In this document: positions 43,126 through 63,634 of the stretch, one piece after another
Layout of the letters: every line of letters begins with the position of its first letter
Position numbering within the stretch: position 1 is the first letter of the stretch
Virus record (IMG/VR): IMGVR_UViG_3300037512_000782
Coordinates: 188,732 to 252,731 of that record
Length of the DNA stretch: 64,000 nt
Source: a virus
Lineage: Duplodnaviria; Heunggongvirae; Uroviricota; Caudoviricetes
Strand: one strand, 5' to 3'
The notes under the pieces: generated by a model
Database searches by the model: none
Told to the model about the DNA's origin: nothing
What the model saw: the letters and a program-made list of their open reading frames with translations, nothing else
Translations under genes and position numbers: made by a program

Positions 43126-43593
43126 GATATGTACACTATGGATATTTTTCTTAATATTACTAATCTATGATTAGAATGTCAAATGAGATGAGCCCCCATA
43201 CCCCCAGCCCACCTAAATTTTTGAAGAATATAGTAGGGGTATAATATGTAAATTTATTTTTATTTTTATGTACCCTGAAAAATAATCATGAAATGGACAG
43301 ACCATTTGCTGCTGGTGATACGAGCGGTGCTTGTCGTGCGAAGTCACTCATGGAACCCCAGGTTAACAAGAACAAGATTGCACTGCTCAGATGTGCCTTA
43401 CGGCGATTTAGCCTAGACTAACTTAGCCCTGGCTAACCTTGTGATCCTCGGCTAACATCGGACAGACTGCTCGCCTACAGATCCCCTTACGGCGTTTTGG
43501 ACTGGCACGAGTTCGGCGGGACTGCTTCCCAAGTGTATGCAAGCTTTGTCAAGCAACGACGCTTGATACGATACACCACTAACCAAAAGGGTT

Positions 43594-44388
43594 ATGACTA
43601 TGAAAAAGCTCAATCTCACCGTTCTCTCCAAGCTCTCCAACACGTTCGCTAGCCTCCGCTACTTCGGCGAGGTCAAGATGAACAAAAAGGCACGTGTCGC
43701 CAACGAAGTTCTCACCAAAGCTATCGCTGAACACGGTGGCAAGGTCGCCGAAGTCGGCTCGCCGTGTCCGTTCAAGACGGTCAAGAAAGCCAACACCTAC
43801 ACGGTGTCTATCGGTGCCAAGCTTCAGTATAAGCGCAAGGTCGAAGCCATGACTAAGCGCAACGGCGTTGAAACCGAATACCACCCAGAAGTGAGGAACT
43901 TGGGAATGTTCCCCATCTTCGGCGAACTCGTTTGGCTGAAGAATGACCTCAGTGAGGTCTACATTCGTGCCTATCAAGTTTCAAAGCCCAAGGCTGCTAC
44001 CTACTACGGTGACGGCGTTGTGGTTGCCAAGGAAAACATTGGGCAGTGGCTTCCGATTAAGGACTACAACACGGTCAGCGGTCTTGAAAATAATGTTTCT
44101 GTGGTCGCCACCGCAAGCGGTGAGGTAATTTATTGCCAAGACGAAAGCGGAAATATTATTAAGGATGAAAACGGCGAGCCGATGACTATGGCTCTTCCGG
44201 AAGTCCGCAGCTTGAAGCTCTCCAACATCGAACTCTATCGCAAGGGTGAAAAAATTGAATTTTTCACTGACGAAGAGTGGGATGACGCCGAACTCATCAA
44301 GATTCGCGACGAGTACCACGCAAGAATGGCGAAAGCGGCTGAAGCCTACGAAAAGGCGATGGCTGAAGCCCAAGCCAAGCAGAACTAA
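43594..44388 (+). CDS. hypothetical protein (alternative start 43600)
   Basis: First gene of the hyperplastic region; 264 aa, Ala/Lys/Glu-rich C-terminus. Confidence 0.55.
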   Translation: MTMKKLNLTVLSKLSNTFASLRYFGEVKMNKKARVANEVLTKAIAEHGGKVAEVGSPCPFKTVKKANTYTVSIGAKLQYKRKVEAMTKRNGVETEYHPEVRNLGMFPIFGELVWLKNDLSEVYIRAYQVSKPKAATYYGDGVVVAKENIGQWLPIKDYNTVSGLENNVSVVATASGEVIYCQDESGNIIKDENGEPMTMALPEVRSLKLSNIELYRKGEKIEFFTDEEWDDAELIKIRDEYHARMAKAAEAYEKAMAEAQAKQN

Positions 44389-44527
44389 CAACAACCGCCC
44401 CCAATATGGGGGCACTTTTATTTTTCATTTGTGTGGAAAATAAAAGTGTTTCCGTAGTGGTGTACGGTCGGACGGTAGCCCTTACTCCCAGGGTTGCCGT
44501 CTTTTTTATTTTGTACTCACACCCATC

Positions 44528-44581
44528 GGACTGGCACGGTTCCGACGGGGCTGCCGACGGCGGATATTCTGACTATGTAAA
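44528..44581 (+). promoter_or_regulatory. phage-specific promoter/stem-loop cassette (PeSL-like), copy b
   Basis: GACTGGCAC, then N8 CGGGGCTGCCGACG, then N14 TATGTAAAC, then CCAAAGGAGA and ATG 44599. Confidence 0.6.
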
Positions 44582-44598
44582 CCAAAGGAGATTTCAAA

Positions 44599-44796
44599 AT
44601 GTCCAAAGAAACCAAACAATTTGATATTGCAATTATGGACTACTCGGATGCTAGCATCCGCATTTTTACTCGCACCCTTCCGAAGGATATTCAAAGCGAG
44701 GAATTAGAGGAAATTCTGACCGCTGAAGGAATTTACAAGCAGTCCGAATGTTATTTCATGTACGCTGAAAAAATCAACATTATCAACGAGGTATAA
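44599..44796 (+). CDS. hypothetical small protein
   Basis: Preceded by cassette b and SD AAAGGAGA. Confidence 0.5.
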   Translation: MSKETKQFDIAIMDYSDASIRIFTRTLPKDIQSEELEEILTAEGIYKQSECYFMYAEKINIINEV

Positions 44797-44797
44797 A

Positions 44798-45124
44798 ATG
44801 CGTAAAATGTTGTTTACAATTCTTACTTTGTGTGCGCTCGCTTGCGCCACCGAACTACCTATTTGTGAAGAGTTCGAGGGCGAAAAGAATGTTTCGTGCG
44901 TAGCTGGCGACCGCCAAGCGGTCATTATCACCTATCACGCCGATGGGTCGCGGTCTTACGAGTATTTCAAGGACAACCGCAAAATTTATTTGGAATATGG
45001 CGAAAACTATGTTTATGCGTCCGATGGCAAGCGTAAAATAGATGTTAGCCCTATACCGAACGATGACCATATAGCGTATATAGACGAGCTATTTTATGGT
45101 CTAATAGATACTTTGGACTTCTAA
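44798..45124 (+). CDS. putative secreted protein or lipoprotein
   Basis: MRKMLFTILTLCALACATELP signal peptide with a lipobox-like LxxC. Coupled to the upstream gene (TAAAATG). Confidence 0.5.
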   Translation: MRKMLFTILTLCALACATELPICEEFEGEKNVSCVAGDRQAVIITYHADGSRSYEYFKDNRKIYLEYGENYVYASDGKRKIDVSPIPNDDHIAYIDELFYGLIDTLDF

Positions 45125-45126
45125 CC

Positions 45127-45150
45127 AAAGGGGCGCAAGCCCCTTTATTT
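45127..45150 (+). terminator. intrinsic terminator (GGGGCGCAAGCCCC family)
   Basis: AGGGGCGCAAGCCCCT hairpin with GCAA tetraloop, followed by TTATTTGG. Near-identical copies at 49515-49545, 50269-50292, 55662-55690 and 59163-59190, with variants at 46259-46292 and 46975-47000. Confidence 0.7.
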
Positions 45151-45267
45151 GGTCGCTATACGGTGTCAGACTGGCACGGCGATGGCGGGACTGCTACGCA
45201 GTCCTATTTTTATTTTGTAAGCCGATGGGGCTTACGAAAACGCCATTCTCAAAAGGAGATACGAATT

Positions 45268-46257
45268 ATGGCTTACAAAAAGACCGGAAAAACGGCTTCC
45301 CAAGTTGGGGAAGAAATCAAGTCCACCATTACATCCAAGTTCCTTGAATGCCTCGACAAGGGCTGTATCCCTTGGAGAGAACAGTGGAACCGCAGCGAAA
45401 GCGGCTTTCTGAAGAGTGACGGCAAGTCCTACTCGTTCTTGAACACTCTGTTGCTCGTCATTGACGGCTGCACGGAAGGCGAGTTCGTGACCTTGAACGG
45501 TATCGCTGAACGCTTGGGCATTGAACCCAAGGAAGCTTGGAACCACATCAAAAAGGGCGACAACGGCAAGGCTGTCCATGGTCACCATGTCTACTTCTAC
45601 ACCATGGTTCCTATCTACCTCAAGGAAGACGGCAAGGTAGTATACGAAAGGGACGCTCGTGGTCAGTTTGTCTTGGACTCCAAGGGCAAGAAGATACCGA
45701 AGATTAGCGGTCATTATCCTATGCTCAAGAGTTCGGTTGTTTGGCAAGTCGGCACTGAAGCTTTTTGTCCGACGAAGTTCGAGAAAAAGAAAAAAGTAGT
45801 CCACAACAATCCGATTGCGGTCGCTGAACAAATTATTGTTGACTATCAAGCTCGCGAGGGTGTCAAGATTGAATTCCGCAACGCCACGCCAGGATATTCG
45901 GATAAGCTTGACAAAATCTATATTCCGTCCATCAATGACTATCCGAACGCAAATATTTATTATTCGGATTTGTTCCATGAAATTGCTCACTCTAGCGGTC
46001 ATCCGAAAAGATTAAATCGTGACCTCGACAACCGCATGAAACGTGGTTCTTACTCTTTTGAAGAGTTGGTCGCTGAAATCTGTTCGTGTGCGATAATGCA
46101 CGACAACGGATTTGACACTCCGCAGTGCGACGAATTAAGTCAATCCTATGTAAAGGATTGGGCGAAAACTCTCAGAAGTGACCCCACAATGATTGAAAAA
46201 GCTTGTCGCGTGGCGGTCAAGGCTGCAAACTTTATCTACAACGGAGAAAAGAAGTAA
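45268..46257 (+). CDS. ArdC-like antirestriction protein (DUF1738 ssDNA-binding N-domain + zincin HExxH metallopeptidase domain)
   Basis: N-terminal ITSKFLECLDKGCIPWREQWN matches the DUF1738 core IxxxIxxLEKGxxPWxxPW. C-terminal FHEIAHSSGH has HExxH. ATG 45268 follows AAAAGGAGA; the track ORF starts at 45163. Confidence 0.7.
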   Translation: MAYKKTGKTASQVGEEIKSTITSKFLECLDKGCIPWREQWNRSESGFLKSDGKSYSFLNTLLLVIDGCTEGEFVTLNGIAERLGIEPKEAWNHIKKGDNGKAVHGHHVYFYTMVPIYLKEDGKVVYERDARGQFVLDSKGKKIPKISGHYPMLKSSVVWQVGTEAFCPTKFEKKKKVVHNNPIAVAEQIIVDYQAREGVKIEFRNATPGYSDKLDKIYIPSINDYPNANIYYSDLFHEIAHSSGHPKRLNRDLDNRMKRGSYSFEELVAEICSCAIMHDNGFDTPQCDELSQSYVKDWAKTLRSDPTMIEKACRVAVKAANFIYNGEKK

Positions 46258-46307
46258 GAAAAGGGGCTTCGCCCCTTTTCTTTTTATTTTGTGCTGATCG
46301 ATCCAGT

Positions 46308-46361
46308 GACTGGCACGGCGACGGCGGGACTGCCTCGACTGGATATTTTTTCTATGTAAAC
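46308..46361 (+). promoter_or_regulatory. PeSL-like cassette, copy d (upstream of radC-like gene)
   Basis: GACTGGCAC GGCGACGG CGGGACTGCCTCG ACTGGATATTTTTTC TATGTAAAC, then AAAGGAG and ATG 46376. Core to TATGTAAAC spacing is exactly 15 nt. Confidence 0.65.
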
Positions 46362-46375
46362 GAAAGGAGTTTAAT

Positions 46376-46972
46376 ATGAAAGACGCATTTGTTCTTATGA
46401 GCACTATTCTTGGCGATGAAAATGTTGCATACGATGTATGCAGATATTTAGAGGGACGTCAGACACCGCCCACGGTAGAAGAGCTTACTCATATTCACGG
46501 TGTCGGCGAGGCGACCGCCAATAAGGTTCTCGCTTGTATGGAATTGTCGGCGACCTATATGGTCGGCACGAATACAAAGGTGTTCAGCGACCCAGACGAT
46601 ATCGCTCGCCGCTTCTGTAACCTCAAGTATGAGAATCAAGAACACTTGTATGTTCTCACGCTCGACTCGGCTAACCACGAGGTCGGCTGTCACGAGGTCA
46701 CTTGTGGGCTGGTTAACCAGACACCGTTCCATCCTCGTGAGGTGTTGCGTTACGCCCTTATGGATAACGCTGTAAGCGTTGTTCTGTGCCACAACCATCC
46801 CAGCGGCTCGACTGACCCATCGCAGCAAGATTTGGGCATTACGAGGGTGCTGGCGGCGGCTTGCAAGATAATGCAAATTGCTTTCCTCGACCACGTGATA
46901 GTATCACGCAGCGGATTTTATTCAATTTGCAGAACTAATCCGGAAATTTTTGAAGCAACACTCAAGACCTAA
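46376..46972 (+). CDS. radC: RadC-like JAB-domain protein (UPF0758/DUF2466)
   Basis: Diagnostic HNHPSGSTDPSQQDLGITRVL (HNHPSG...PS..D JAMM-like motif). N-terminal helix-hairpin-helix THIHGVGEATANKVLA. Confidence 0.85.
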   Translation: MKDAFVLMSTILGDENVAYDVCRYLEGRQTPPTVEELTHIHGVGEATANKVLACMELSATYMVGTNTKVFSDPDDIARRFCNLKYENQEHLYVLTLDSANHEVGCHEVTCGLVNQTPFHPREVLRYALMDNAVSVVLCHNHPSGSTDPSQQDLGITRVLAAACKIMQIAFLDHVIVSRSGFYSICRTNPEIFEATLKT

Positions 46973-47015
46973 TCCAAAGGGCGAACGCCCTTTTTTAATT
47001 CATTATACGTCAGAC

Positions 47016-47069
47016 GACTGGCACGACGGCGACGGGACTGCCTCGACTGGATATTTATTATATGTAAAC
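47016..47069 (+). promoter_or_regulatory. PeSL-like cassette, copy e
   Basis: GACTGGCAC ... CGGGACTGCCTCG, N15 with TATT, TATGTAAAC, AAAGGAG. Confidence 0.65.
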
Positions 47070-47082
47070 GAAAGGAGCTTAT

Positions 47083-47238: not shown

Positions 47239-47270
47239 ACACAAACAACCTAACCAAGGAGTAAAAACAA

Positions 47271-47552: not shown

Positions 47553-47833
47553 AATAACACGGCATGGGCTACGCCGAGGAGTAGCCCACCTTTTTATTTG
47601 GGACTCTATAACATGGCTAAATCAAGCAAAATTATCACGGTGCGCACCACTAAGCGCGTGGGCGGTCGATAATGAAAGTCGATATCGTATACATCAAGTT
47701 GACCCCAGTCGAGGGCGCGTGGTGGCGCAAGATCGCTAGCAAGAAGAAGTAGACTGGCAAGAGCTTGGCGGGACTGCTCCCCAAGCTTATTACATCTATG
47801 TAAGCAGTTGAACCCCTAACCAAGGAGATTGAT

Positions 47834-48352: not shown

Positions 48353-48432
48353 ACTTCGGTCGCAAATGGCTAGGGTTGCTCCCTAGCCATTTATTTTCTA
48401 TCTTTCACCCTCAATTAAAGGAGAAATAAAAA

Positions 48433-48804: not shown

Positions 48805-48931
48805 GGTAGCCCCCTTTTTTGTAGGGATCGATCCGGACGACTGGCACGACGGCGACGGGACTGCTCCGCTGGTGTATTATATTCATGTAAGCAAGAGAGC
48901 TTACGGCTACACCACTCACAAGGAGTTTTAT

Positions 48932-49513: not shown

Positions 49514-49514
49514 T

Positions 49515-49545
49515 CAAGGGGCGCAAGCCCCTTTTTATTTTATTT
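49515..49545 (+). terminator. intrinsic terminator (GGGGCGCAAGCCCC family)
   Basis: AAGGGGCGCAAGCCCCTTTTTATTTT. Confidence 0.7.
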
Positions 49546-49637
49546 GTGATCGATCCGGACGACTGGCAGTCCAGCGACGGGGCTGCCTCTACTGGATATT
49601 TTATTTATGTAAACAAGTTCAACCAAGGAGTTATCCA

Positions 49638-50120: not shown

Positions 50121-50420
50121 GGGCTGCCATGATGACCAAGATAATTAAAGTCAAGGTGAACGGACGGATAGAAGATATTACCGTGACCGTGGGCATGAGA
50201 AAGGTGGAACCGCAACCGCAACGGTCTCGCTTCCGTCTGCCCAAGTTAGGAATGTTGTTTCACTGGTAAGGGGCGCAAGCCCCTTTTTTTCGTATAGGCG
50301 CTTTACAATTCGCACGGATCGATCGATAATAACTGTAGAGACTGGCACCGCGACGGCGGGACTGCTCTCGACATGTATTATATTTATGTAAACGATACAC
50401 CACTTAACAAGGAGTTCAAC

Positions 50421-51101: not shown

Positions 51102-51374
51102 ATGGCCAAGCTCTATTATCTCGAAAACTCGGTTCCTACATACAACGACCAAGCTAAATATTTTGTTAGTGGTAGCGATGCTAGTGGCGAACACTACAAC
51201 GGTGCGAGCGATTTGCTGAACGCTCGATTCTTCTTTGACGAGGAAGAAGCGAAGCGCTGTATTCACACGGCAAATAATTGGTGGCAGAAGTACGACTTCA
51301 AAGTCAAGTCCATTGAAATCACCGAGCTTCAAAGCTTGATGGCGAAGAAGAAAGATTCATTCATACTTATCTAA
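51102..51374 (+). CDS. hypothetical protein
   Basis: SD AAGGAGG; 90 aa. Confidence 0.5.
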   Translation: MAKLYYLENSVPTYNDQAKYFVSGSDASGEHYNGASDLLNARFFFDEEEAKRCIHTANNWWQKYDFKVKSIEITELQSLMAKKKDSFILI

Positions 51375-51379
51375 CTGGA

Positions 51380-51426
51380 TGGACGACGACGGGGCTGCCT
51401 CGCCGTCGTATTTTTGTTGTACGAAC
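51380..51426 (+). promoter_or_regulatory. PeSL-like cassette, copy j
   Basis: GACGACGAC-GGGGCTGCCT-CGCCGTCGT: covarying stem around the conserved loop. N15 then TGTACGAACC, then AAGGAG. Confidence 0.6.
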
Positions 51427-51734: not shown

Positions 51735-51744
51735 CAGACTGACA

Positions 51745-51791
51745 TCCGGACGGCGAGGCTGCCTCGTCGTCCTATTCCTTCTATACAACCT
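51745..51791 (+). promoter_or_regulatory. PeSL-like cassette, copy k
   Basis: GGACGGCGA-GGCTGCCT-CGTCGTCC, then TATTCCTTC TATACAACC, then AAGGAG. Confidence 0.6.
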
Positions 51792-51806: not shown

Positions 51807-52280
51807 ATGAAACTGGAATATAAGGTGGACAAGGTATCGTTGACCATCGTGAAAGTGCCGTCTGATTATCGTGAATGTTCTGTTTGTGGACACTGGAAAC
51901 CGTTTAGCGAGTTCTGTAACCAGCAAGGAGTAATGACACGCACGAACTGTTCAGACTGCTACAATATGCCGTTGGAAGATATGCGAGCGCTGTCCAAGCA
52001 GACAAGCGATTTTATACGCGCCCATCGTGTGGACATTTACAACATTTCTGAACGTGTCACTACTGGTAGCCAGTTGATGACCAAGAGAGCTTTCTTGGAA
52101 CAGATAACCGAACAGCTAAAGGATATCGGCGACAACGAGCTTGTGCATGCGGTATATGATACCTATGACCCAGACGGCTATTCATGTAAGGAACCATTGA
52201 ATAACTTGTCGGTAAACACAAAGCGCACCAAGATAGAACTGGATGTTCCGACAGACATCGTCCAGGTCACTCTCTGCTAA
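51807..52280 (+). CDS. hypothetical protein with Cys4 zinc-ribbon-like motif
   Basis: CSVCGHW ... CSDCYN. Cassette k. Confidence 0.5.
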   Translation: MKLEYKVDKVSLTIVKVPSDYRECSVCGHWKPFSEFCNQQGVMTRTNCSDCYNMPLEDMRALSKQTSDFIRAHRVDIYNISERVTTGSQLMTKRAFLEQITEQLKDIGDNELVHAVYDTYDPDGYSCKEPLNNLSVNTKRTKIELDVPTDIVQVTLC

Positions 52281-52285
52281 CTGGC

Positions 52286-52332
52286 TACTGGACGACGGGG
52301 CTGCCTCGTCGTCCTATTATTTCTATACAACC
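52286..52332 (+). promoter_or_regulatory. PeSL-like cassette, copy l
   Basis: GGACGACG-GGGCTGCCT-CGTCGTCC, then TATTATTTC TATACAACC. Confidence 0.6.
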
Positions 52333-52908: not shown

Positions 52909-53027
52909 AGAATGGGGCGAGTGCCCCATTTTTTATTTGTTCGCCGATCGATCCGGACGACTGGCACAGCAGCGACGGGGCTGCCTCGACTGGATATTTT
53001 ATCTATGAAACCAACAAGGAGATTACC

Positions 53028-53432
53028 ATGGCTAAGAAAATCATTAACAAAGAAATTGAATTCGTTCAGAAAGCAAAGGCTATTGTGTTCGAGTCTAACC
53101 AAGATTCGCTGGCGAGCGCTAAGGCTGGCGATACGCTGGTCGTCGATGACCAGTACGGTATCGAACACGGTAAGTGGCTCTCGATACGGTCTGGCGACGA
53201 GTTCAGAGTGAAGTTCGTGGACACGCATAACCCCTTGATGAAGCCAGTCTACATCGTGGTCGTGACTAAGGCTCCGTCTGACGGTGGCTATTCTCCACGC
53301 CACAAGGTAGGCGACGAGCTTGAAATCAGCGAGCACATGCCGTTGTACGCCCACATCCACAAGAAGAACGACCCCACATTGGCGACAAGGCTCCGCAAGC
53401 TCTGCCGAGACTACCTCGACGGACTGCTGTAG
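53028..53432 (+). CDS. hypothetical protein
   Basis: Cassette m plus SD AAGGAG. Confidence 0.5.
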   Translation: MAKKIINKEIEFVQKAKAIVFESNQDSLASAKAGDTLVVDDQYGIEHGKWLSIRSGDEFRVKFVDTHNPLMKPVYIVVVTKAPSDGGYSPRHKVGDELEISEHMPLYAHIHKKNDPTLATRLRKLCRDYLDGLL

Positions 53433-53489
53433 CGACGACGGGGCTGCCCAGCAGCCCTATTCCTTTATTGTAACCAACAAGGAGCTACT

Positions 53490-53936
53490 ATGATGAAAAT
53501 CGTAACCAAGTCTATCAAGATACCGCAGAGCCGTGAGGATTTCCATGGGATGATGGAATTTATCCGTGAACACGCCCAGTTTAAGGAAGAGCACAATGTT
53601 AAAGCCGTCCAAGGTCGCATTAGGGATAACTATTGCTGCAATTATGGGGCAAAAGACAAGCCTAAAGCTTACAAGGTGCTTGACTTCTTTGTGGAATGTG
53701 GGGCAATGCTCCGCACTCTCAAGCGACTTCCGCTTGACACGTTCGGTGTCCGTATGGACGATGTAATTAAGGGGATAGAACAGCCCTACGGCGAATATGT
53801 TGCCAAGATGTGGGATTTCTTGCGACACTATCCTAGAGATTGGCAACTTAGAGATACACAGATGTTCCCCTTTGAAGTTAACGAGTCATTGGGCAAGGTC
53901 AGACAGCTCTCCAAACAGCTGGGAGACTGGATATAA
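53490..53936 (+). CDS. hypothetical protein
   Basis: Cassette n plus SD AAGGAG. Confidence 0.5.
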   Translation: MMKIVTKSIKIPQSREDFHGMMEFIREHAQFKEEHNVKAVQGRIRDNYCCNYGAKDKPKAYKVLDFFVECGAMLRTLKRLPLDTFGVRMDDVIKGIEQPYGEYVAKMWDFLRHYPRDWQLRDTQMFPFEVNESLGKVRQLSKQLGDWI

Positions 53937-53978
53937 GATGACGGGGCTGCCTCGCAGCCCTATTCATTTATTGTAACC
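53932..53978 (+). promoter_or_regulatory. PeSL-like cassette, copy o
   Basis: GACGGGGCTGCCTCGCAGCCC (the core pairs with GCAGCCC), then TATTCATTT ATTGTAACC, then AAGGAG. Close copies n (53430-53476), p (54610-54656) and q (55138-55184). Confidence 0.6.
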
Positions 53979-53993: not shown

Positions 53994-54608
53994 ATGCAAA
54001 GACTTTATAAGTTCTACATCGCCCACGCACACGGCTGCTTTATGGATCCAAGCGAACGCTATCTTGCTCGCTCTATGTTCTCGTGTGAAGATACTGCTGA
54101 CACCCAGCTGCATCACAGTGCGCAAGAGTTTCTGCGCAGCCATGTGGGCTGTATCCATTTCAGCGAGCCACAGACCATTCTCGAATCTAAGGCCGACGAC
54201 GAGTGCAAGGTGCTTTGGAAGAAGCACGAGGACGACATCGAGGCTATCCAAGTCAAGTACACGGAGCTGCTTCGCAAGGCTTCAGAGAAGCTTCCTCGCA
54301 GTGCGCTGATGTTCGAGAGCGATGAGTGCAACAAGCTCATTAACGAGCGAGCCAACGAGTACCGCAAGGTTGACGACGAGTACAGCACCGCTCGCGACGC
54401 CGTCTATGCCAAGTGCGAAGAGGCCAAGAAAGAATGGCGTATCTACAAGGCCGAGGATGTGGACGCATTTATTAAGAAGTGCCAGGCCTACAATAAAGAA
54501 AAGAAAAAGTCTGGGCTGCAATTCTATTGCACCATCGACCGAAAGAAAGATAACAGTGGCTTCCCCTATGTGGACATGGGCTACTGCAAGATGCAGGTCG
54601 AAGACTGA
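53994..54608 (+). CDS. hypothetical protein
   Basis: Cassette o plus SD AAGGAG. Confidence 0.5.
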   Translation: MQRLYKFYIAHAHGCFMDPSERYLARSMFSCEDTADTQLHHSAQEFLRSHVGCIHFSEPQTILESKADDECKVLWKKHEDDIEAIQVKYTELLRKASEKLPRSALMFESDECNKLINERANEYRKVDDEYSTARDAVYAKCEEAKKEWRIYKAEDVDAFIKKCQAYNKEKKKSGLQFYCTIDRKKDNSGFPYVDMGYCKMQVED

Positions 54609-54672
54609 CCGATCGACGACGGGGCTGCCTCGCAGCCCTATTTTATTTTTGTAACATCAACAAGGAGCTTTT

Positions 54673-55131
54673 ATGAATACGAAATATAGCATTGCCAGTG
54701 CGGATGGATTCCAGACCACCAGCGGACAAATTGTCGAATTCAAGTTGGGCAGCTCGCCGACAATCGAGGCACTGCGAGCCGACCTCGAAACTTTGTCTAA
54801 AGAAGCGCCCATCAAGGTCTGCTTGCTGGATTTGACGGCTGCGGTGCTGCGAGCCGAACAGCTCTACACCGACAAGACGGTCACTGGGCTGGTGATTGAC
54901 CCAACACAGAAGGTATCAAGCTCGTGGGACTTGTTCAGCGACGGCACTCATCGAGAAATCTGGGAAGTGTGGACACGCATCCGCAAGGACGGCAAGTGGG
55001 TCTTTGGTACTAGCTACTTGTTCGAGTGCGAACGGCTGCCGACCGACTATAGCAAGTCTATGCTACACGCTGACTACCTCGTGTGGGGAATTCATGAGTC
55101 TGACGACATGTGGGGCAAGGTCGCTGGCTAG
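54673..55131 (+). CDS. hypothetical protein
   Basis: Cassette p plus SD AAGGAG. Confidence 0.5.
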   Translation: MNTKYSIASADGFQTTSGQIVEFKLGSSPTIEALRADLETLSKEAPIKVCLLDLTAAVLRAEQLYTDKTVTGLVIDPTQKVSSSWDLFSDGTHREIWEVWTRIRKDGKWVFGTSYLFECERLPTDYSKSMLHADYLVWGIHESDDMWGKVAG

Positions 55132-55211
55132 ACTGAAACAAGATCGACGGGGCTGCCACGCAGCCCTATTTCTTTTATACAAACCCAATCACAATCAACC
55201 AAGGAGTTATT

Positions 55212-55658: not shown

Positions 55659-55706
55659 AACCAAGGGGCGCAAGCCCCTTCTTTTGTTTGTAAAATATAA
55701 CAAAAC

Positions 55707-55761
55707 TGACTGGCACACTTGACACGGGACTGCCATTTAGTTATATTTAATATATACAAAC
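55707..55761 (+). promoter_or_regulatory. variant cassette r carrying sigma70-like TTGACA-N17-TATATT
   Basis: GACTGGCAC ACTTGACA CGGGACTGCCATT TAGTTATATTTAATA TATACAAACC AAGGAGA. Near-duplicate cassette w at 59207-59260. Confidence 0.55.
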
Positions 55762-56040: not shown

Positions 56041-56280
56041 ATGAACGGTGTTCTTATTACTGCCATTATCGTTGTCGGTATCGTCGCCATCGTCGTCGCT
56101 TCGCTCGTGTATGCGAGCAAGTTCAAGTGTAAGCACGAATGGGGCGAAGGTCAAGCGGTCACTCGTGAGCTCGAAGATGTTTACGGCCACACGAAGAAGC
56201 TGCTCTTTATGATGTGCCGTTGCAAGAAGTGCGGCTGCTACCGTTCGTTCGACACGAGGCCGACGGATCAACAATACTAG
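56041..56280 (+). CDS. small membrane protein with zinc-ribbon cysteines
   Basis: TM helix ITAIIVVGIVAIVVASLVYA, then CKHEW...CRCKKCGC. Track start 56035 is GTG. Confidence 0.45.
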   Translation: MNGVLITAIIVVGIVAIVVASLVYASKFKCKHEWGEGQAVTRELEDVYGHTKKLLFMMCRCKKCGCYRSFDTRPTDQQY

Positions 56281-56333
56281 ACTGGCTCCAGATCGGCGGG
56301 GCTGCCTCGCCGATCTATTCCTTTTATACAAAC
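56280..56333 (+). promoter_or_regulatory. PeSL-like cassette, copy s
   Basis: GACTGGCTC CAGATCGGCG-GGGCTGCCT-CGCCGATC (perfect 8-bp stem), then TATTCCTTT TATACAAACC, then AAGGAG. Near-identical stems in copies z (60491-60544), aa (61504-61556) and cc (63232-63284). Confidence 0.65.
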
Positions 56334-56353: not shown

Positions 56354-56995
56354 ATGATGGATGTTGCATCTTTCCTCGAAACCAAGCCCACGTTCGAACA
56401 GATGATGAACCTTCGCCAGACGATGGCCGTCGCCGAAAAGCGTATCAAGAAGGCTGTTCTGAAGCTCAACGACCAGAACCCTACCGACGAAGAGCTCAAG
56501 AAGATGGACTTGCGCTGCGACGACGATGAGATCGTTGTCGGTACGTGGACGAAGAACGTCAGAGCGACGAAGGAAGCCGTCGAAGCCTACATCAAGGAGA
56601 ATCCAGGCTACGCCGTCGTCACCCACACGCCCACGAGCGCCGACGACATCAAGGTAGGCGACATCTACTACAGCAGCTGGGGCGCTACCATGGCCATGAT
56701 CACGTTCTTCAAGGTCGTCAACCGTACCAAGCAGTTCGTGACTCTCCGCATACTGGAACAGATCGAGACTCACGACAACATGTTCTCTGGCACCACCATG
56801 CCGCTGGACGAGTTCGAGAACCGCAGCAACGTATATGACGACGAGCGCTTCGAGGACGAAAACGGTTTTGTTTACGGACAGCGCACGGTCAAGGTCAACC
56901 CAGACGGCAACGGCTCCGCAGTGCTCCGCTACAAAAAATTCATGTGGTGCTATCCGTGGGACGGCAAAAGCAAGTCCTTCGACCACTGTGACTAA
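56354..56995 (+). CDS. hypothetical protein
   Basis: Cassette s plus SD AAGGAG. Terminator 57003-57040. Confidence 0.5.
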   Translation: MMDVASFLETKPTFEQMMNLRQTMAVAEKRIKKAVLKLNDQNPTDEELKKMDLRCDDDEIVVGTWTKNVRATKEAVEAYIKENPGYAVVTHTPTSADDIKVGDIYYSSWGATMAMITFFKVVNRTKQFVTLRILEQIETHDNMFSGTTMPLDEFENRSNVYDDERFEDENGFVYGQRTVKVNPDGNGSAVLRYKKFMWCYPWDGKSKSFDHCD

Positions 56996-57417: not shown

Positions 57418-57511
57418 TCCGGAGACTGGCATAGCTCCAGCGGGACTGCCTCGCTGGAGTATTTATATGGTGTAGGGCAATGAAGCTCTACGGTACTAGG
57501 GAGTAACCATT

Positions 57512-58288
57512 ATGGCTCAAGTTTTCGACGACATCAACAACATTGTGAGACCTACGAAGGGTATCAAGGCGTTCAAGTTCAATCCCAACACCGTCAAGTA
57601 CAAGTTCGAGACCAAGGGTAACTCGAAGATCGGCAAGATCGCCGTCTGGTCTACCTTGATGGGCGACTACACCTACAAGGGCATGCGTGGCAAGCTCAAG
57701 GACATCAAGGGCACGTGCAAGAACTGCAAGTCGTGCAAGCCGTCTTGCTACTGCCGTCACGGCTACTGCATCCATCCGTCCGAGGTGTTCAACCACGCCA
57801 AGAACACATGGGGACTGCGCAACGACCGCGACTACGTGCTCGCTTGCCTCACCCAGCAGCTCTCCCACGGCAACATCCACACGGTACGCATCAACGCTTC
57901 CGGCGAAGTCGAGGACGACAACCAGATGATTCTGTGGGTCACGCTCGCCATGTGCTTCTCGAAAGTGAAGTTCTACCTTTACACAAAGAACTACGAGCTC
58001 GCCGAACAGTTCTTGCTCAAGGGTCTCGTGCCGGAAAATTTTGTGATTCTCTACTCGGTCTGGGGCGAGAACGGCGTGAAAGAATTTGAACGTGTAAAGC
58101 ACTTACCGAACGTAAAAGCTTTTGTTTTCGACGACGGCGATATGAAAATCGAACCTAACAAGTATTGCCCAGCATACGTCGAAAAGTTCAAGAACTCGAA
58201 CAAGTACAAGCGCAAAAACATTCATTGCGACCAGTGCAAAATGTGTTTCGCTGGCAAAACAAAAGTTATCGCTTGTCACGACCATTAA
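57512..58288 (+). CDS. cysteine-rich hypothetical protein
   Basis: Cluster CKNCKSCKPSCYCRHGYC and a C-terminal CDQCKMC. Degenerate cassette t. Confidence 0.5.
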   Translation: MAQVFDDINNIVRPTKGIKAFKFNPNTVKYKFETKGNSKIGKIAVWSTLMGDYTYKGMRGKLKDIKGTCKNCKSCKPSCYCRHGYCIHPSEVFNHAKNTWGLRNDRDYVLACLTQQLSHGNIHTVRINASGEVEDDNQMILWVTLAMCFSKVKFYLYTKNYELAEQFLLKGLVPENFVILYSVWGENGVKEFERVKHLPNVKAFVFDDGDMKIEPNKYCPAYVEKFKNSNKYKRKNIHCDQCKMCFAGKTKVIACHDH

Positions 58289-58426
58289 TTTGACCATAGG
58301 TAAGCTCCAGGCTCCGCTCGAAAGGGCGGAGCCTTCTTTTATGCGTGATCGATCCGGATGACTGGCTGGAGATCGACGGGGCTGCCACCGGAAGATATTT
58401 ATTTTATGTAAAACAGAGGAGTTATT

Positions 58427-58690
58427 ATGACCGACGAACAAATCGCACAGTATAAAAAGCGCACAGAGAACTATCGCAAGTTCGCTATCACCGCACAAGA
58501 GCTTTATGACAAGCTCGGAGAATTTATTAAGCAAGGGCACGGCGACGCCATGTTCGATGTCTCGGACAACTGTGGTGGCTCGTATGTATTGGGCCGAAAC
58601 GATATTTACCTCGTCGAACCCAATAAAGAAGTCGAGAACAGTATCGAAGTGTTCGGCAAGTGGATATCCCTCGGCGAAGAATGTCCGTAA
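58427..58690 (+). CDS. hypothetical protein
   Basis: Cassette u plus SD AGAGGAG. Confidence 0.5.
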   Translation: MTDEQIAQYKKRTENYRKFAITAQELYDKLGEFIKQGHGDAMFDVSDNCGGSYVLGRNDIYLVEPNKEVENSIEVFGKWISLGEECP

Positions 58691-58751
58691 GACGGCGGGG
58701 CTGCCTCGCCGTCCTATTCTTTCTATACAACCTCAACAAGGAGAATTACTT

Positions 58752-59159: not shown

Positions 59160-59270
59160 CCAAAGGGGCGCAAGCCCCTTTTGTTATTTGTAGATATAAC
59201 TTTACAGACTGGCACTATTGACACGGGATTGCCTAAAAGTTATATTATATATGAGAACCAAGGAGACATT

Positions 59271-59669
59271 ATGAATTGGCCTTTTGAATCCAAGAATGTA
59301 AAGAAAATGAACGAAACCGCCTATAACAAGGTGGCGAACTATATGCAGTGCCACGCAGCGGAATTTATGAATGGCGATGAGGCTACCCACAAAAGGGCGC
59401 AGTCTATCGCTGACGCTATCAACGCGAAAGATAATTCCAAGTGCATCGTGGACACCGACAAGGCTCTCGTGGACGATGTGCTTCAGTGCTTGGCCTCTAT
59501 GGGCGAGCATATCAGCAACGGCTACCCTAACGCATTGGTGGCGTGTGGCTATGACCCATCCATCGTGTTCATGGTAGGCGATACCGCAGAAGACGGCCAG
59601 TCCAAGTGCGTCTATCTCCGTCTCACCATCCTCGACTGGCCCAAGAAGGGCGGGGCTGCCTCGGCCTAG
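59271..59669 (+). CDS. hypothetical protein
   Basis: ATG 59271 after variant cassette w and SD AAGGAGA. Confidence 0.5.
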   Translation: MNWPFESKNVKKMNETAYNKVANYMQCHAAEFMNGDEATHKRAQSIADAINAKDNSKCIVDTDKALVDDVLQCLASMGEHISNGYPNALVACGYDPSIVFMVGDTAEDGQSKCVYLRLTILDWPKKGGAASA

Positions 59670-59701
59670 TATTGGTTCTATACAACCAAGGAGAAACACT
59701 T

Positions 59702-60109: not shown

Positions 60110-60175
60110 GACTGGAACCGGAGCGGCGGGGCTGCCTCGCCGTTCTATTCACTTTATACAAACAAAGGAGCTTTT

Positions 60176-60490: not shown

Positions 60491-60557
60491 GACTGGAACT
60501 GGATCGGCGGGGCTGCCTCGCCGATCTATTCACTGTATACAACCAAGGAGATTTAAG

Positions 60558-61106: not shown

Positions 61107-61109
61107 AAA

Positions 61110-61142
61110 CACGGTGCCCATGTGGGCACTATTTTTTATTTA
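61110..61142 (+). terminator. intrinsic terminator
   Basis: GTGCCCA-tgt-GGGCAC followed by TATTTTTTATTT. Confidence 0.65.
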
Positions 61143-61163
61143 TTCGAAAAGGAGGTTCAGAAC

Positions 61164-61505
61164 ATGGACGGTAAATGGGTATTGATAGTAATCGGCGTAT
61201 TATTTTTAGCGGTCATTATCGCTATCGTCGTTGACTGCTTGCGTAATACAAAAGAAAGTGAACCAGAGCCAGAGCCGTATGTGCAGCCACGCGCTGGAGA
61301 GGTGTCGCCGAGTAACTGGGCCACGTCGTCGTTCTCGCCGTCGGTGTTTGTCGGTATGTCTCCGACCATTTATTTTGTGTGCGGTGCTTGCGGTGGCGAG
61401 ACCCAGTTAAAGGTGCCTATGGCTACGGTTCCGTATGACGGCGGCCTACGCCTACGGTGCCAGTGTTGCGGCAAGCCGAACAGACTGCCGATCCGGCGGC
61501 TCTGA
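61164..61505 (+). CDS. membrane-anchored zinc-ribbon protein
   Basis: TM helix VLIVIGVLFLAVIIAIVV, then CGACGG...CQCCGKPN. SD AAGGAGG. Confidence 0.5.
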   Translation: MDGKWVLIVIGVLFLAVIIAIVVDCLRNTKESEPEPEPYVQPRAGEVSPSNWATSSFSPSVFVGMSPTIYFVCGACGGETQLKVPMATVPYDGGLRLRCQCCGKPNRLPIRRL

Positions 61506-61574
61506 CTGGCACTGGATCGGCGGGACTGCCTCGCCGATCTATTCTCTTTATACAACCTCAACAAGGAGACACCA

Positions 61575-62177: not shown

Positions 62178-62189
62178 AAATAACTTTAC

Positions 62190-62230
62190 GATTAGGTAGG
62201 TATTGACAACCTACCTAATTTTATTATATT
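62190..62230 (+). terminator. intrinsic terminator
   Basis: TTAGGTAGGT-attgacaa-CCTACCTAA followed by TTTTATTATATTTCTTTTT. Confidence 0.65.
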
Positions 62231-62252
62231 TCTTTTTAACCAAGGAGTTTTT

Positions 62253-62453
62253 ATGAAGAAACCAGTCAAAATGTTACGAAAGTTTTTCTATGTCGAAATG
62301 GGCATAGTGTTTCTCGTGTTGGTCTATTTGACCTACACAAACGCCCAAGAGAGCATCGAAAAGGCTATTGTCGTGTTGCCGTTCTATATCTTATGGGGCT
62401 TAATGGTCGTTGTCGGCATTACCGATAAGGACTTATCCGACAGCAAATTTTAA
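62253..62453 (+). CDS. small two-TM membrane protein
   Basis: SD AAGGAG; hydrophobic 66-aa product. Confidence 0.45.
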   Translation: MKKPVKMLRKFFYVEMGIVFLVLVYLTYTNAQESIEKAIVVLPFYILWGLMVVVGITDKDLSDSKF

Positions 62454-62466
62454 CCAAGGAGAATTT

Positions 62467-62718
62467 ATGGCCAGCAAGCAAGTCGAATCTATGAAAAAGA
62501 CAATCGCCGAGGCGGTTGAAAAATTTAACTCCAGCCACGACAAGAAGCTCGAATATGTAGGCGAGGAACCGCCGAGCGGCGTGGTAAAGTACGCGGCAAA
62601 ATACAAGTTCGGTGAAAAGCTTGTCTACTTGATGGGCTGCCAGGATAGGCCGTTCTTCGGTTGCACTGGCAAGGACGACCTCGAATTCATGGACGAGTTC
62701 CTTGAGACACTGACATAG
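62467..62718 (+). CDS. hypothetical protein
   Basis: ATG 62467 after SD AAGGAGA. Confidence 0.45.
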   Translation: MASKQVESMKKTIAEAVEKFNSSHDKKLEYVGEEPPSGVVKYAAKYKFGEKLVYLMGCQDRPFFGCTGKDDLEFMDEFLETLT

Positions 62719-62784
62719 CGACGGCGGGACTGCTCCGCAGTCCTATTGTTTCTATACAACCAACAACCAAAAGGAGATTAAACC

Positions 62785-63228
62785 ATGAGAAAGCATAGCA
62801 GAGACCCACGTCGTTGTTTCATCGTATATCTTACGACAACAGACAGCGAAGACGGTACGACCGTATCGAACGACGGCTTCAACGTATTACTTACCAAAGA
62901 CGAGGCTGCCATCGTAGATAAAGCAGCCGACGCACAGCGCGGCGACTTGGTGCTGAAGTATTTCAATCAGAAGATCAAGAACGCCGTCATCCAGTGGTTC
63001 AATGAATCGCCTCACACCTTGCGTAAAACGCTCGATGAATATTGCTTTGGTTACGACTACGAAAACGAAGCCGACAAAGGCCAGAGCGAACTCGATTACG
63101 CTTTGTCCAAGTTTACCGCAAGGTGTGTCGTGTTGATTTCGGATGGTATCGCTAGTCAGAATGGGTTCAATACATTGGATGTTAACGTCACAGCTACATC
63201 CGATTACGCCGATAGCTTGTTCGACTAG
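62785..63228 (+). CDS. hypothetical protein
   Basis: Cassette bb plus SD AAAGGAGA. Confidence 0.5.
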   Translation: MRKHSRDPRRCFIVYLTTTDSEDGTTVSNDGFNVLLTKDEAAIVDKAADAQRGDLVLKYFNQKIKNAVIQWFNESPHTLRKTLDEYCFGYDYENEADKGQSELDYALSKFTARCVVLISDGIASQNGFNTLDVNVTATSDYADSLFD

Positions 63229-63306
63229 CGACTGGTGGATCCTCGGCGGGGCTGCCTCGCCGATCTATTCCCTTTATACAACCAACAACCAAAAGGAGAA
63301 ACAACA

Positions 63307-63537
63307 ATGTTCAAATTTCTTTGCGCTCTCTTTCTCGCTGGCGTTCTTGCTGGCCTCTACATGTTCTCTTCGGATTCTGCGAAGGCTTCTGTCAAGAAAG
63401 CTGGAACGGAACTTGTGCGTGACGCCGCCGACAACGCGACGGAAGCCGCGCTCGACCAGACCGAAAAGGCTGGCAAGAAGATGATCTCTCGTGTGAAGGA
63501 CATCAGAAAGGCCAACAACGACAAGTTCAAGAAGTAG
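63307..63537 (+). CDS. small membrane or secreted protein
   Basis: ATG 63307 after cassette cc. Signal-anchor MFKFLCALFLAGVLAGLYMF. Confidence 0.45.
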   Translation: MFKFLCALFLAGVLAGLYMFSSDSAKASVKKAGTELVRDAADNATEAALDQTEKAGKKMISRVKDIRKANNDKFKK

Positions 63538-63589
63538 ACTGGATCCGGCCCGGCGGGGCTGCCCTGCCGGGTTATTCTTTCTACACAAC
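63537..63589 (+). promoter_or_regulatory. PeSL-like cassette, copy dd
   Basis: GACTGGATC CGGCCCGGCG-GGGCTGCCC-TGCCGGG, then TTATTCTTTC TACACAAC. Confidence 0.55.
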
Positions 63590-63590
63590 A

Positions 63591-63618
63591 AACAATCAAC
63601 AATCAACAATCAACAATC
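63591..63618 (+). repeat. (AACAATC)x4 heptanucleotide tandem repeat in 5' leader
   Basis: Four perfect AACAATC units lie between the cassette -10-like element and the AAAAGGA RBS of the last gene. Confidence 0.8.
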
Positions 63619-63634
63619 AAAAGGACACAATCCA

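Follow-up and report, generated by a model that had tools for sequence, protein, structure and literature searches.

What does the repeated sequence found ahead of small genes in a 343-kb rumen phage do? We analysed a window of 64 kb (its positions are used throughout) with about 10 kb of flank, where the first-pass annotation had described about 30 copies of a composite cassette. A position weight matrix (PWM) built on element positions −18 to +37, with the core C as index 0, gave 30 ungapped copies of at least 31 bits, all on the + strand at 43.5–63.6 kb, and no matches between 12 and 31 bits, on the − strand or elsewhere in the window. The copy at 50357, missed by the annotation's core pattern, was recovered at 52.9 bits though absent from the training set. 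With up to one mismatch, CGGGRCTGCCTCG gave 18 matches against 0.16 expected from shuffles, every one on the + strand and confined to 46.3–63.3 kb. The earlier statement that no copies lie outside 43.5–63.6 kb holds within the window, but 63.6 kb is merely the window edge: on the same contig, the next 9.5 kb hold 15 further copies, to window-equivalent 73.3 kb, which brings the array to at least 45 copies over 30 kb. The element was absent from bacterial genomes and so is not a host (REP-like) repeat. All copies sit on the coding strand of the downstream gene, and in 28 window copies AAGGAG and a start codon follow 47–82 nt 3′ of the core start. Beside the array, gene 41974–43125 matches only an uncharacterised phage family. 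The elements and associated parts are:

43500..43553 (+): element copy 1, first of the array (core 43517); degenerate, TATG replaces TATT; 45 bits (PWM); weak hairpin, −7.9
44529..44582 (+): element after canonical terminator 44470–44502; gene start 44599; hairpin −9.7
45169..45222 (+): element, class II hairpin GGGACTGC/GCAGTCC; would drive ArdC-like anti-restriction gene 45268–46257
46308..46361 (+): element after terminator 46256–46282; no significant hairpin (z −1.6); would drive RadC-like gene 46376–46972
47016..47069 (+): element after terminator 46976–46993; right-hand L004 swap junction at about index +22 to +26
47752..47805 (+): element; upstream stop TAG fused to box (TAGACTGG); stem AGCTTGG/CCAAGCT
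48839..48892 (+): element after terminator; upstream box GATCGATCCGGAC
49561..49614 (+): element after AAGGGGCGCAAGCCCCTT terminator 49516–49533
50340..50393 (+): element missed by the first-pass core pattern (core 50357); gene 50421
51373..51426 (+): element, class I hairpin; stop TAA fused to box (TAACTGG)
51737..51790 (+): element, class I hairpin −20.5; terminator-like in independent scan (51748–51772)
52279..52332 (+): element, class I hairpin −20.0; terminator-like (52290–52314)
52959..53012 (+): element after terminator 52906–52935; no hairpin (z −0.6)
53422..53475 (+): element, class II hairpin GGGGCTGC/GCAGCCC
53925..53978 (+): element, class II hairpin (z −4.2)
54603..54656 (+): element, class II hairpin; GACTGA contains the upstream stop, TGA
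55131..55184 (+): element, class II hairpin; stop TAG fused (TAGACTGA)
55708..55761 (+): hybrid element after terminator 55663–55680 (core 55725); perfect TTGACA (55719)-N17-TATATT (ends 55747), both in register with the core and GACTG; lacks a hairpin
56280..56333 (+): element, class I hairpin −21.3 (z −4.2); stop TAG fused; gene 56354–56995
57424..57477 (+): element, class I hairpin −20.2; gene 57512–58288 (GP88 family)
58360..58413 (+): element after terminator 58309–58334; weak hairpin
58679..58732 (+): element, degenerate left box (GAATG); class I hairpin −19.2
59207..59260 (+): hybrid element after terminator 59162–59181; core CGGGATTGC (59224); TTGACA (59218)-N17-TATATT (ends 59246)
59634..59687 (+): element; SD begins 1 nt past TATACAACC box
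60110..60163 (+): element, class I hairpin −20.9; box directly follows stop TAG
60491..60544 (+): element, class I hairpin (z −6.5); SD begins 1 nt past box
61504..61557 (+): element, class I hairpin −20.2; stop TGA fused (TGACTGG)
62708..62761 (+): element, class II hairpin GGGACTGC/GCAGTCC, A:T covariation
63230..63283 (+): element, hairpin −17.7; gene 63307–63537
63537..63590 (+): element, class I hairpin −23.7, then CAA-repeat leader; last window copy, array continues
62203..62230 (+): canonical TTGACA-N16-TATATT promoter without element, within the array; gene 62253
9466..10206 (+): phage factor of the sigma-70 family (regions 2 and 4) that may read the cassette promoters

Aligned over 54 bp with no indels, the window copies consist of a left box GACTG (index −17 to −13), a core box CGR-CGGGRCTGC (−3 to +8), TATT (+19 to 22) and a TATRYAA box (+28 to 34), followed in order by a C/A-rich leader (80% C+A), AAGGAG and ATG. 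The first-pass description was accurate on the left-box variants, on the 15 nt with TATT inside that separate core and TWTRYAAMC, on the SD, and on the placement of cassettes immediately 3′ of GGGGCGCAAGCCCC-type terminators (about 11 copies). ACTG occurs twice, exactly 20 bp apart and hence on the same helix face, and the core is a near-palindrome, CGgGG-CTG-CCtCG. The same rigid, indel-free spacing was seen across 427 unique copies from related metagenome contigs. Drawn from related strains, these copies are not independent, and conservation of GACTG, CGGGRCTGC and TATT among them is partly built in, since the retrieval pattern required all three. Index 31 is a purine in 426/427 of these copies, and index 30 a pyrimidine in 420/427.

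The register in which the element would be read is suggested by a minority of hybrid copies. Perfect TTGACA lies at −6 to −1 in 21 of the 427, and all 21 carry TATATT at 17–22 (TA at index 17–18 occurs in 29/427 overall). TTGACA-N17-TATATT is also the phage's own canonical promoter form, found at 16075, 28086, 32882 and 36468 (and at 62203, spacing N16–N17), and leaderless-looking CTATATT-N7-ATG starts calibrate the transcription start as the 8th nucleotide past the hexamer. With the hybrid motifs in register, TATT would be the −10-type element of a phage-specific promoter, and we infer, on sequence grounds, start sites at index 29–31 within the TATRYAA box (pyrimidine at 30, purine at 31). 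The mRNA leader would be short, unstructured and C/A-rich, carrying a strong SD. TATT could be −10 to −7 of a hexamer at 17–22, as in the hybrids, or −12 to −9 of one at 19–24, in which case the invariant A20 would be the −11 A. The earlier remark that the element matches no sigma70 promoter is correct for most copies (321/427 have 5–6 mismatches to TTGACA at −6 to −1) but not for the window hybrids with cores at 55725 and 59224.

The first-pass annotation had instead placed the start 5–10 nt past TWTRYAAMC. TATACA and TATGTA do look like a −10, CTGCCT (index 5–10) is 17 bp from TATACA (28–33) and a sigma factor is encoded in the window, so this box could be the −10 of a phage-sigma promoter with the CTGCC half of the core, 17–18 bp upstream, as −35. 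However, GGAG begins at index 38–42, only 2–6 nt past the box, in about a third of copies (129/395), so the start cannot be downstream of the box, where it would remove the strongly conserved SD. The hybrids, moreover, have their perfect −35/−10 pair 11 bp upstream of the one proposed, the −10 being TATT, and the invariant TATT would be unaccounted for. We regard this arrangement as unlikely.

Since the sigma70 −35 hexamer would be replaced by two fixed boxes, CGGGRCTGC at about −29 to −21 and GACTG at about −46 to −42, the class would need a phage-encoded specificity factor, either the sigma factor at 9466–10206 or a MotA-like activator. The core is too near the −10 for normal sigma region-4 contact. 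Hybrids, with their added TTGACA and TATATT, could also be read by unmodified host RNA polymerase. In the insulated unit 46256–46993 (terminator, element, RadC-like gene 46376–46972, terminator 46976–46993), a sigma70 scan found no other promoter. As the near-palindromic core falls between the −35 and −10 set by the hybrids, a typical operator position, the boxes might be operators for a phage repressor or shut-off factor acting on weak host-type promoters. We give this a small chance: 95% of copies have neither any −35 nor the consensus −11A/−12T in the hybrid register, a repressor alone would leave genes promoterless even between two terminators, and the palindrome-extending flanks vary and covary only where a terminator is lacking, as RNA structure and not an operator would. 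A sigma-54 promoter, with the −24 element TGGCAC held in GACTGGCAC and index −1 to 0 as the −12 GC, has a fitting GG-to-GC offset of 12 if position −1 is G. It is contradicted, and its probability is negligible: TGGCAC occurs in only 49/427 copies, G at −12 in only 70% and TTGC at the −12 position in 4/427, G−12 and G−1 are not associated, and the core, TATT and start box are left unexplained.

The GC hairpin at the core, described earlier as general and selected for its structure, proved conditional. Strong stems (−14 to −24 kcal/mol) were found in about 19 of 30 window copies; about a third of copies, those behind a canonical terminator, have no hairpin above shuffle level, and GACTG, core and TATT are kept with or without the terminator. 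Mean hairpin dG was −15.1 without an upstream terminator and −7.9 with one (shuffled, −7.8; p=2e-31); for the window copies alone the values were −16.5 and −7.8 (p=7e-4). Shuffle z-scores were −3 to −6.5 in hairpin copies and about 0 in terminator-preceded ones. The covariation is real (97 perfect 6-bp stems versus 17 in permutations, with 26 different arm sequences; class II R4:Y16 pairs, 11 A:T, 9 G:C and 1 mismatch), but that at pairs −4:16, −5:17 and −6:18 (for example, 150 Watson–Crick pairs versus 74 expected, all four types present) is confined to copies without an upstream terminator. Folding favours the + strand over the − strand (p=3e-37), and 14 element hairpins passed an independent terminator-consensus scan. 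Since selection on the structure is confined to copies that lack another terminator, the hairpin does not belong to the promoter proper; it behaves as the terminator of the upstream gene. Where that gene has none, the variable core flanks would have evolved to pair, or the core would pair with a downstream GCAGYCC, and the GC hairpin followed by the T-rich −10/start region would form an intrinsic terminator; the gene's stop codon often appears fused to the GACTG box. Because other bases break up the U-tract (UAUUyyUUyUAU), termination may be incomplete.

G·U wobbles and the strand asymmetry in folding indicate RNA structure, and GACTG, spacer and a hairpin with conserved tip superficially resemble boxA/boxB. 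An RNA element in long polycistronic transcripts, either an antitermination signal of the nut/put type or a site where processing leaves monocistronic mRNAs, each protected by a 3′ hairpin, is nevertheless improbable: the boxes are kept without the hairpin in the third of copies behind a canonical terminator, stems of 8–13 bp are too short for RNase III, Rfam gives no matching family, and with canonical promoters so few, a series of at least 45 terminators would keep most genes from being transcribed.

Modular swapping of cassettes, proposed from the sequence, was borne out by related phages, which differ by cassette swaps, insertions and deletions with junctions inside the element. In one strain (L004), otherwise 99% identical, the RadC gene is replaced by an unrelated 115-aa gene, with both junctions inside the flanking elements; many related contigs have mosaic cassette orders, and of 40 synteny breakpoints, 36 fall at element index −18 to +45. 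The repeats would thus offer portable homology for exchange between related huge phages, a cassette (ORF and its 3′ signal) being swapped, inserted or deleted with neighbouring genes undisturbed. Single-gene cassettes in an array, separated by imperfect inverted repeats and seen to be gained, lost and swapped, also recall an integron-like system with attC-like recombination sites. This is very doubtful, as breakpoints scatter over index −18 to +45 with no single crossover point, a third of sites have no hairpin, every site has an SD-linked expression signal and no integrase was seen beside the array.

Each 54-bp element is thus probably a self-contained expression and insulation cassette in which promoter, terminator and portable homology overlap: most likely a phage-specific promoter, often the terminator of the preceding gene, and a splice point for gene swaps. 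The conditional hairpin, hybrid copies and in-element swap junctions support the PeSL-like architecture of promoter plus stem-loop in a hyperplastic region that was first proposed.

PeSLs of T4-like phages are composite terminator/promoter cassettes mediating modular shuffling (Arbiol et al. 2010, PMC2839356; Comeau et al. 2014, PMC4122927). The present elements share with them small size, a terminal SD and start codon, dense repetition between small ORFan genes, transcriptional insulation of each gene, and insertion, deletion and replacement junctions between close relatives that fall in the cassettes. PeSL promoters, however, are early promoters of the sigma70 type, close to consensus (TTGACA-N17-TATAAT) and preceded by an AT-rich region, and their stem-loop lies upstream of the −35, whereas here 95% of copies have two conserved GC-rich boxes instead of a −35, and the hairpin, present only without a separate terminator, is superimposed on the promoter, its U-tract being the −10/start region. 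Density is also higher here, and the carrier is a 343-kb rumen phage; the one protein compared, a 740-aa vWA protein, has its best phage-collection matches in Alishewanella phages and Ackermannviridae, at about 30% identity. As in T4 middle (MotA/AsiA-dependent) promoters, a −10-type element is paired with a phage-specific box, which stands in for the −35 and would be read with a phage-encoded factor, but the box is CGGGRCTGC at about −25 rather than TGCTT at −30, a second box lies at about −44, and the −10 is TATT only. Middle promoters combined with stem-loops in shuffling cassettes occur as the PmSLs of Vibrio phage nt-1 (PMC4122927). Bacterial intrinsic (Rho-independent) terminators likewise have a GC-rich stem of 8–13 bp, a 3–5 nt loop and a T-rich run, but here the T-run is interrupted (TATTyyTTyTAT) and the loop or 5′ arm, serving also as a promoter box, is fixed in sequence. 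Phage N4 virion-RNAP promoters also contain a short hairpin with a 3-nt loop, which in N4 is obligatory and recognised as extruded DNA, whereas here it is absent from a third of copies, and from the hybrids altogether. PeSL cassettes are thus already known from T4-like phages, and what is new here is a variant with phage-specific boxes and a conditional hairpin.

The repeated signal that precedes the small genes (the element) is genuine, a regulatory repeat that is highly significant and clearly delimited, and its architecture was read correctly in the first-pass annotation. Its core, CGGGRCTGCCTCG, was matched 18 times with at most one mismatch in the 64-kb window (0.16 matches expected), every time on the plus strand. 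Loosening the search to 3 mismatches and inspecting the flanks gave 29 copies, which align without gaps from GACTG through the Shine-Dalgarno (SD) sequence. A position weight matrix (PWM), the check suggested in the first-pass annotation, was built from these copies over positions −18 to +37, with the core C as 0. It regained all 29 and, in addition, a copy absent from the training set (50357, 52.9 bits; copies are named by core position), and found no further site above 12 bits on either strand of the 64 kb. In 28 of the 30 window copies AAGGAG and a start codon lie 47–82 nt past the core start. The parts of the element, on the plus strand, are:

−17 to −13, GACTG block
−3 to +9, CGR-CGGGRCTGC(C) block
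+19 to +22, TATT block
+26, conserved T
+28 to +36, TATRYAA(m)C block
3′ part, C/A-rich leader followed by the SD and the ATG

The end of the array at 63.6 kb, as annotated at first, turned out to be only the edge of the window: the contig that holds the identical sequence (ENA ERZ27256849:k141_3706846, 342,771 bp) carries 15 more copies in the next 9.5 kb. Its close relatives include one contig of 439.5 kb. A metagenome-wide pattern scan found more than 115 loci among the matches listed, many of them rumen-derived and many with 3–10 copies, and a PWM scan of these loci yielded 427 unique copies, on one strand only per locus. Conservation of GACTG, CGGGRCTGC and TATT among these copies is partly built in by the pattern. 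Scans of IMG/VR with the motif gave chance single matches only, the region had no match among INPHARED phages by megablast, Rfam returned no family and a tRNA scan returned none. One large protein of the window is 30% identical to Ackermannviridae proteins.

A host-derived REP-like repeat would be expected in many chromosomal copies. Across the genomes of 185,579 bacterial and archaeal species, however, we found single chance matches only, besides short contigs of one ruminal MAG, which bear the same phage cassettes (families 22, 9, 0, 5, 6 and 2). The element is thus phage-specific and not a host repeat. Public MAG contigs with cassettes were found in Prevotella sp. ruminal_MAG_415 (L123, L132, L133, L136 and L140) and Fibrobacter sp. 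ruminal_MAG_346 (L131, a 116-kb contig); the gene order of L133 is that of the close strain L004. We judged these contigs to be mis-binned and rejected them as evidence for the host: their DNA is probably that of phages, wrongly assigned to bacterial MAGs, and not a reliable guide to the host.

Several features of the sequence suggest that the element is a promoter. These are its strict orientation and distance to start codons, the rigid spacing among its four blocks, as expected of protein–DNA recognition, and the retention of every block even behind strong terminators. In addition, some units are flanked on both sides by canonical terminators, which leaves the element as the sole upstream signal, as in the following unit:

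46256-46282, canonical terminator
46308-46361, plus strand, element, followed by the RadC gene
46976-46993, canonical terminator

The putative start site could be placed with the help of two kinds of sequence. At other places in the window the phage's own canonical promoters take the form TTGACA-N17-TATATT. A perfect TTGACA at −6 to −1 is present in 21 of the 427 copies (2 of the 30 in the window, 55725 and 59224), and all 21 of these hybrids also have TATATT at 17–22; TA at 17–18 occurs in 29 of the 427. Secondly, CTATATT-N7-ATG occurs at 7 sites of the window, versus 0.06 expected:

2917, plus strand, CTATATT-N7-ATG
6806, plus strand, CTATATT-N7-ATG
16149, minus strand, CTATATT-N7-ATG
16350, plus strand, CTATATT-N7-ATG
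19981, plus strand, CTATATT-N7-ATG
28108, plus strand, CTATATT-N7-ATG
32904, plus strand, CTATATT-N7-ATG

Several of these have TTGACA or TTGACG 17 bp upstream and an ATG in frame with a long ORF (for example 28122-29378 and 19995-21185), and they look like leaderless genes under canonical TTGACA-N17-TATATT promoters, with the start at the 8th nt past the hexamer. Together, the hybrids and this calibration suggest that TATT makes up the −10 or the 3′ part of it, and that transcription would start at position 29–31. A pyrimidine occupies position 30 in 420 of the 427 copies, and a purine position 31 in 426. In this register the core lies at about −29 to −21 and GACTG at about −46 to −42, and ACTG is repeated with a spacing of exactly 20 bp, at offset −16 in 399 copies and at +4 in 279. 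The earlier proposal, in which TWTRYAAMC was the −10 and transcripts started 5–10 nt downstream of it, is unlikely, because GGAG begins 2–6 nt past that box in 129 of 395 copies and such transcripts would drop the conserved SD. A sigma-54 promoter (GACTGGCAC; GG at −24, GC at −12, TGGCAC-N5-TTGC) was also rejected, with GG found in 70% of copies, TGGCAC in 49 of 427 and TTGC in 4 of 427.

The leaders are overall 80% C+A, with G and T scarce, which suggests selection for unstructured 5′ UTRs; that of the last cassette (63591-63640) is a CAA-repeat tract, caacaaacaatcaacaatcaacaatcaacaatcaaaagga. At 16080-16161 a 41-nt unit with a promoter-like segment (AAAAACCTATATTTGG..ATTATG) is duplicated in tandem at 80% identity, resulting in two successive −10/leaderless-start motifs. 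An extra, optional box, GATCGATCCGGAC, made of two overlapping palindromes (GATCGATC and TCCGGA), stands immediately 5′ of GACTG in 43 of the 427 copies, chiefly terminator-preceded ones. Its sites in the window are:

46293-46305, GATCGATCCGGAC box
48824-48836, GATCGATCCGGAC box
49546-49558, GATCGATCCGGAC box
52944-52956, GATCGATCCGGAC box
58345-58357, GATCGATCCGGAC box

We analysed the hairpin by folding each copy. The core itself is near-palindromic (CGgGG-CTG-CCtCG), with a G.T wobble on the plus strand that is an A.C mismatch on the minus strand, and folding is better on the plus strand. Stems form in two registers: in class I the variable flanks −8 to −1 and +13 to +20 pair about the core, and in class II a downstream GCAGYCC pairs with GGGRCTGC. 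About 19 of the 30 window copies have a hairpin. RNAalifold on 29 window copies, another check proposed earlier, gave a consensus of just 3 bp, because a third of the copies have no stem and the others form it in either of two registers; we therefore relied on per-copy folding and register-specific pair counts, which did reveal covariation. Perfect 6-bp class I stems number 97 versus 17 in permutations, with 26 distinct arm sequences, and in class II R4 covaries with Y16 (A:T 11, G:C 9, mismatch 1).

The presence of the hairpin depends on what lies upstream. Strong stems are confined to copies where the upstream ORF runs directly into the element, and behind a canonical terminator the copies fold only as well as shuffled sequence does. 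In the window the hairpin energy is −16.5 kcal/mol without and −7.8 kcal/mol with an upstream terminator (p=7e-4; shuffle z-scores −3 to −6.5 and about 0, respectively), and among the 427 copies −15.1 and −7.9, with shuffles at −7.8 (p=2e-31). Likewise, at the pair −5:17 the copies without a terminator have 150 Watson–Crick pairs versus 74 expected, of all four pair types, as against 24 versus 35 expected in terminator-preceded copies. Thus, of the claim that covarying stems mark a structure under selection, the covariation is real, but the hairpin is neither intrinsic to the element nor always selected, only where an upstream terminator is lacking. The element hairpins have the form of an intrinsic terminator, a GC-rich hairpin followed at once by a U-rich tract, and 14 of them pass an independent terminator-consensus scan (61 sites in total versus 20 expected in the region), because TATTyyTTyTAT comes after the stem. 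In about half of the locatable cases the upstream stop codon is fused with the GACTG box or directly adjoins it (TAGACTG, TAACTG, GACTGA). We infer that the hairpin is the upstream gene's intrinsic terminator, superimposed on the variable positions of the next promoter, and that it would be dispensable where a separate terminator is present; like the start site, termination at the element is predicted from sequence. An N4-type promoter, in which a hairpin is obligatory, does not agree with the terminator-preceded copies, which have no hairpin above the shuffled level. Readings of the element as an RNase III site or a nut-like antiterminator were also rejected.

The array holds about 40 small plus-strand genes, with family matches only for ArdC-like, RadC and GP88 proteins, and by Pfam and PHROGs the cassette proteins are mostly ORFans. 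Clustering the first ORF past each of 548 elements gave 136 families, and the recognisable few include an ArdC-like anti-restriction protein, RadC and a C5 methylase. Two genes outside the array have auxiliary functions:

24802-26151, minus strand, nicotinate phosphoribosyltransferase-family protein
31190-32827, plus strand, SPFH/flotillin-like protein

Modular swapping between relatives, which the first-pass annotation had proposed to look for, is clear from the comparison. L004 is 99% identical to the window across 13.6 kb, except that an unrelated 115-aa gene, with a TAACTGA box and strong class I hairpin at its 3′ end, takes the place of the RadC-like gene and its terminator. The left junction lies immediately past the SD of element 46325 and the right one at about +22 to +26 of element 47033. 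As the gene was replaced together with its 3′ signal, the terminator or hairpin travels with its ORF. Family orders along contigs are mosaic (7-1-37-29-13-14-8-16-10 in the window versus 25-1-13-73-14-8-10 in the related locus L077), and in another, L035, RadC family 68 sits between families 0 and 5. Of 40 non-redundant junctions with one neighbour common and the other different, 36 end at −18 to +45 of the element, dispersed over about 60 bp rather than at a single nucleotide. Such dispersal fits homologous recombination between the repeated elements and not site-specific recombination. An integron attC array was rejected for the same spread, and since each cassette has its own expression signal; the flanking genes scanned gave no match to any integrase family.

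The canonical terminators are themselves near-identical repeats, AAGGGGCGCAAGCCCCTT (GCAA tetraloop), and may add to the homology for recombination:

45140, AAGGGGCGCAAGCCCCTT terminator
49516-49533, AAGGGGCGCAAGCCCCTT terminator
50268-50285, AAGGGGCGCAAGCCCCTT terminator
55663-55680, AAGGGGCGCAAGCCCCTT terminator
59162-59181, AAGGGGCGCAAGCCCCTT terminator

Two paralogous proteins, both PHROG 20046, may be homing-endonuclease-like, and strong canonical promoters precede their genes (18951 and 43182, minus strand):

17266-18915, minus strand, PHROG 20046, also a weak GIY-YIG nuclease match
41974-43125, minus strand, PHROG 20046, adjoining the array start

At the −35 position 321 of the 427 copies have 5–6 mismatches to TTGACA, and 95% lack a −35 hexamer; this promoter class should therefore depend on a phage-encoded factor. 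The sigma factor encoded at 9466-10206 (plus strand), the reader proposed at first, is a candidate. It is a generic sigma70-family protein with regions 2 and 4, and typing by PDB and NCBIfam gave generic matches only, nearest RpoS/SigBFG/FliA. The core is closer to the −10 than would be normal for a region-4 site, and a MotA-like activator is equally possible. The sigma gene has no AAGGAG-type SD (9420-9468, …CCCAGGACACCACACACATG), in contrast to the cassette genes. Canonical-type promoter sequences lie 5′ of it (8040-8068 and about 8355-8383) and would suggest early expression.

Taken together, the element might represent a class of promoters in huge rumen phages that has not been described before, a reading that we regard as possible but somewhat doubtful. 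A phage factor would bind the two ACTG boxes (about −44 and −25) in place of a −35 and, with the minimal TATT −10 and the conserved start box, would steer the RNA polymerase of the host to no fewer than 45, probably more than 100, single-gene units; the same 54 bp would also hold a facultative RNA terminator and, in many cases, the upstream gene's stop codon. If so, one signal would serve as terminator, promoter and recombination linker, by which a 343-440-kb phage can keep and exchange a very large arsenal of accessory genes. The regulatory signal is resolved to single bases along its 54 bp, comes with 427 natural variants and has a predicted start site, which makes the transcription programme and its specificity factor directly testable in vitro. 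The arrays also catalogue more than 130 families of small genes, each individually insulated, and the conditional hairpin is a clean natural experiment in which a regulatory sequence gains a second, RNA-level function only where needed. The repeat is an unusually well-defined point from which to approach how an uncultured huge phage programmes its transcription and exchanges accessory genes.

The element is not categorically new in kind. The promoter-early stem-loops (PeSLs) of T4-like phages, to which it had been likened at first, are small composite terminator/promoter cassettes with SD and ATG, concentrated in hyperplastic regions at indel and replacement junctions; their promoter activity, terminator activity and mini-circle formation were shown by experiment (PMC2839356, PMC4122927). 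The likeness holds for the combination of promoter, stem-loop terminator and SD/ATG in one short intergenic cassette (here as predicted functions), for clustering in a hyperplastic region of small, mostly ORFan genes, and for indel/replacement junctions between close relatives inside the cassettes. It does not extend to the promoter, since the near-consensus sigma70 early promoter of PeSLs (TTGACA-N17-TATAAT-like) is found here only in the 5% of hybrids, nor to the stem-loop, which in PeSLs lies 5′ of the −35, whereas here the hairpin (centred on +6 or +10, roughly −23 to −19 when counted from the putative start) overlaps the promoter boxes. In T4 middle promoters a TGCTT Mot box has its centre at −30, and a sigma70 −10 (TAnnnT) follows 11–13 bp downstream; the element departs from this, with CGGGRCTGC centred at about −25, TATT as the −10 and a T at the −7 equivalent that depends on the register. 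In its logic it comes nearer to the PmSLs of phage nt-1, which carry Mot boxes, but the boxes differ. The principle of portable promoter–terminator linkers thus reaches past T4-like coliphages and vibriophages to uncultured huge rumen phages, with a different linker consensus that is not sigma70. The element is a phage-specific, non-sigma70 PeSL analogue of uncultured 343-440-kb rumen phages, with a conditional terminator superimposed on it.
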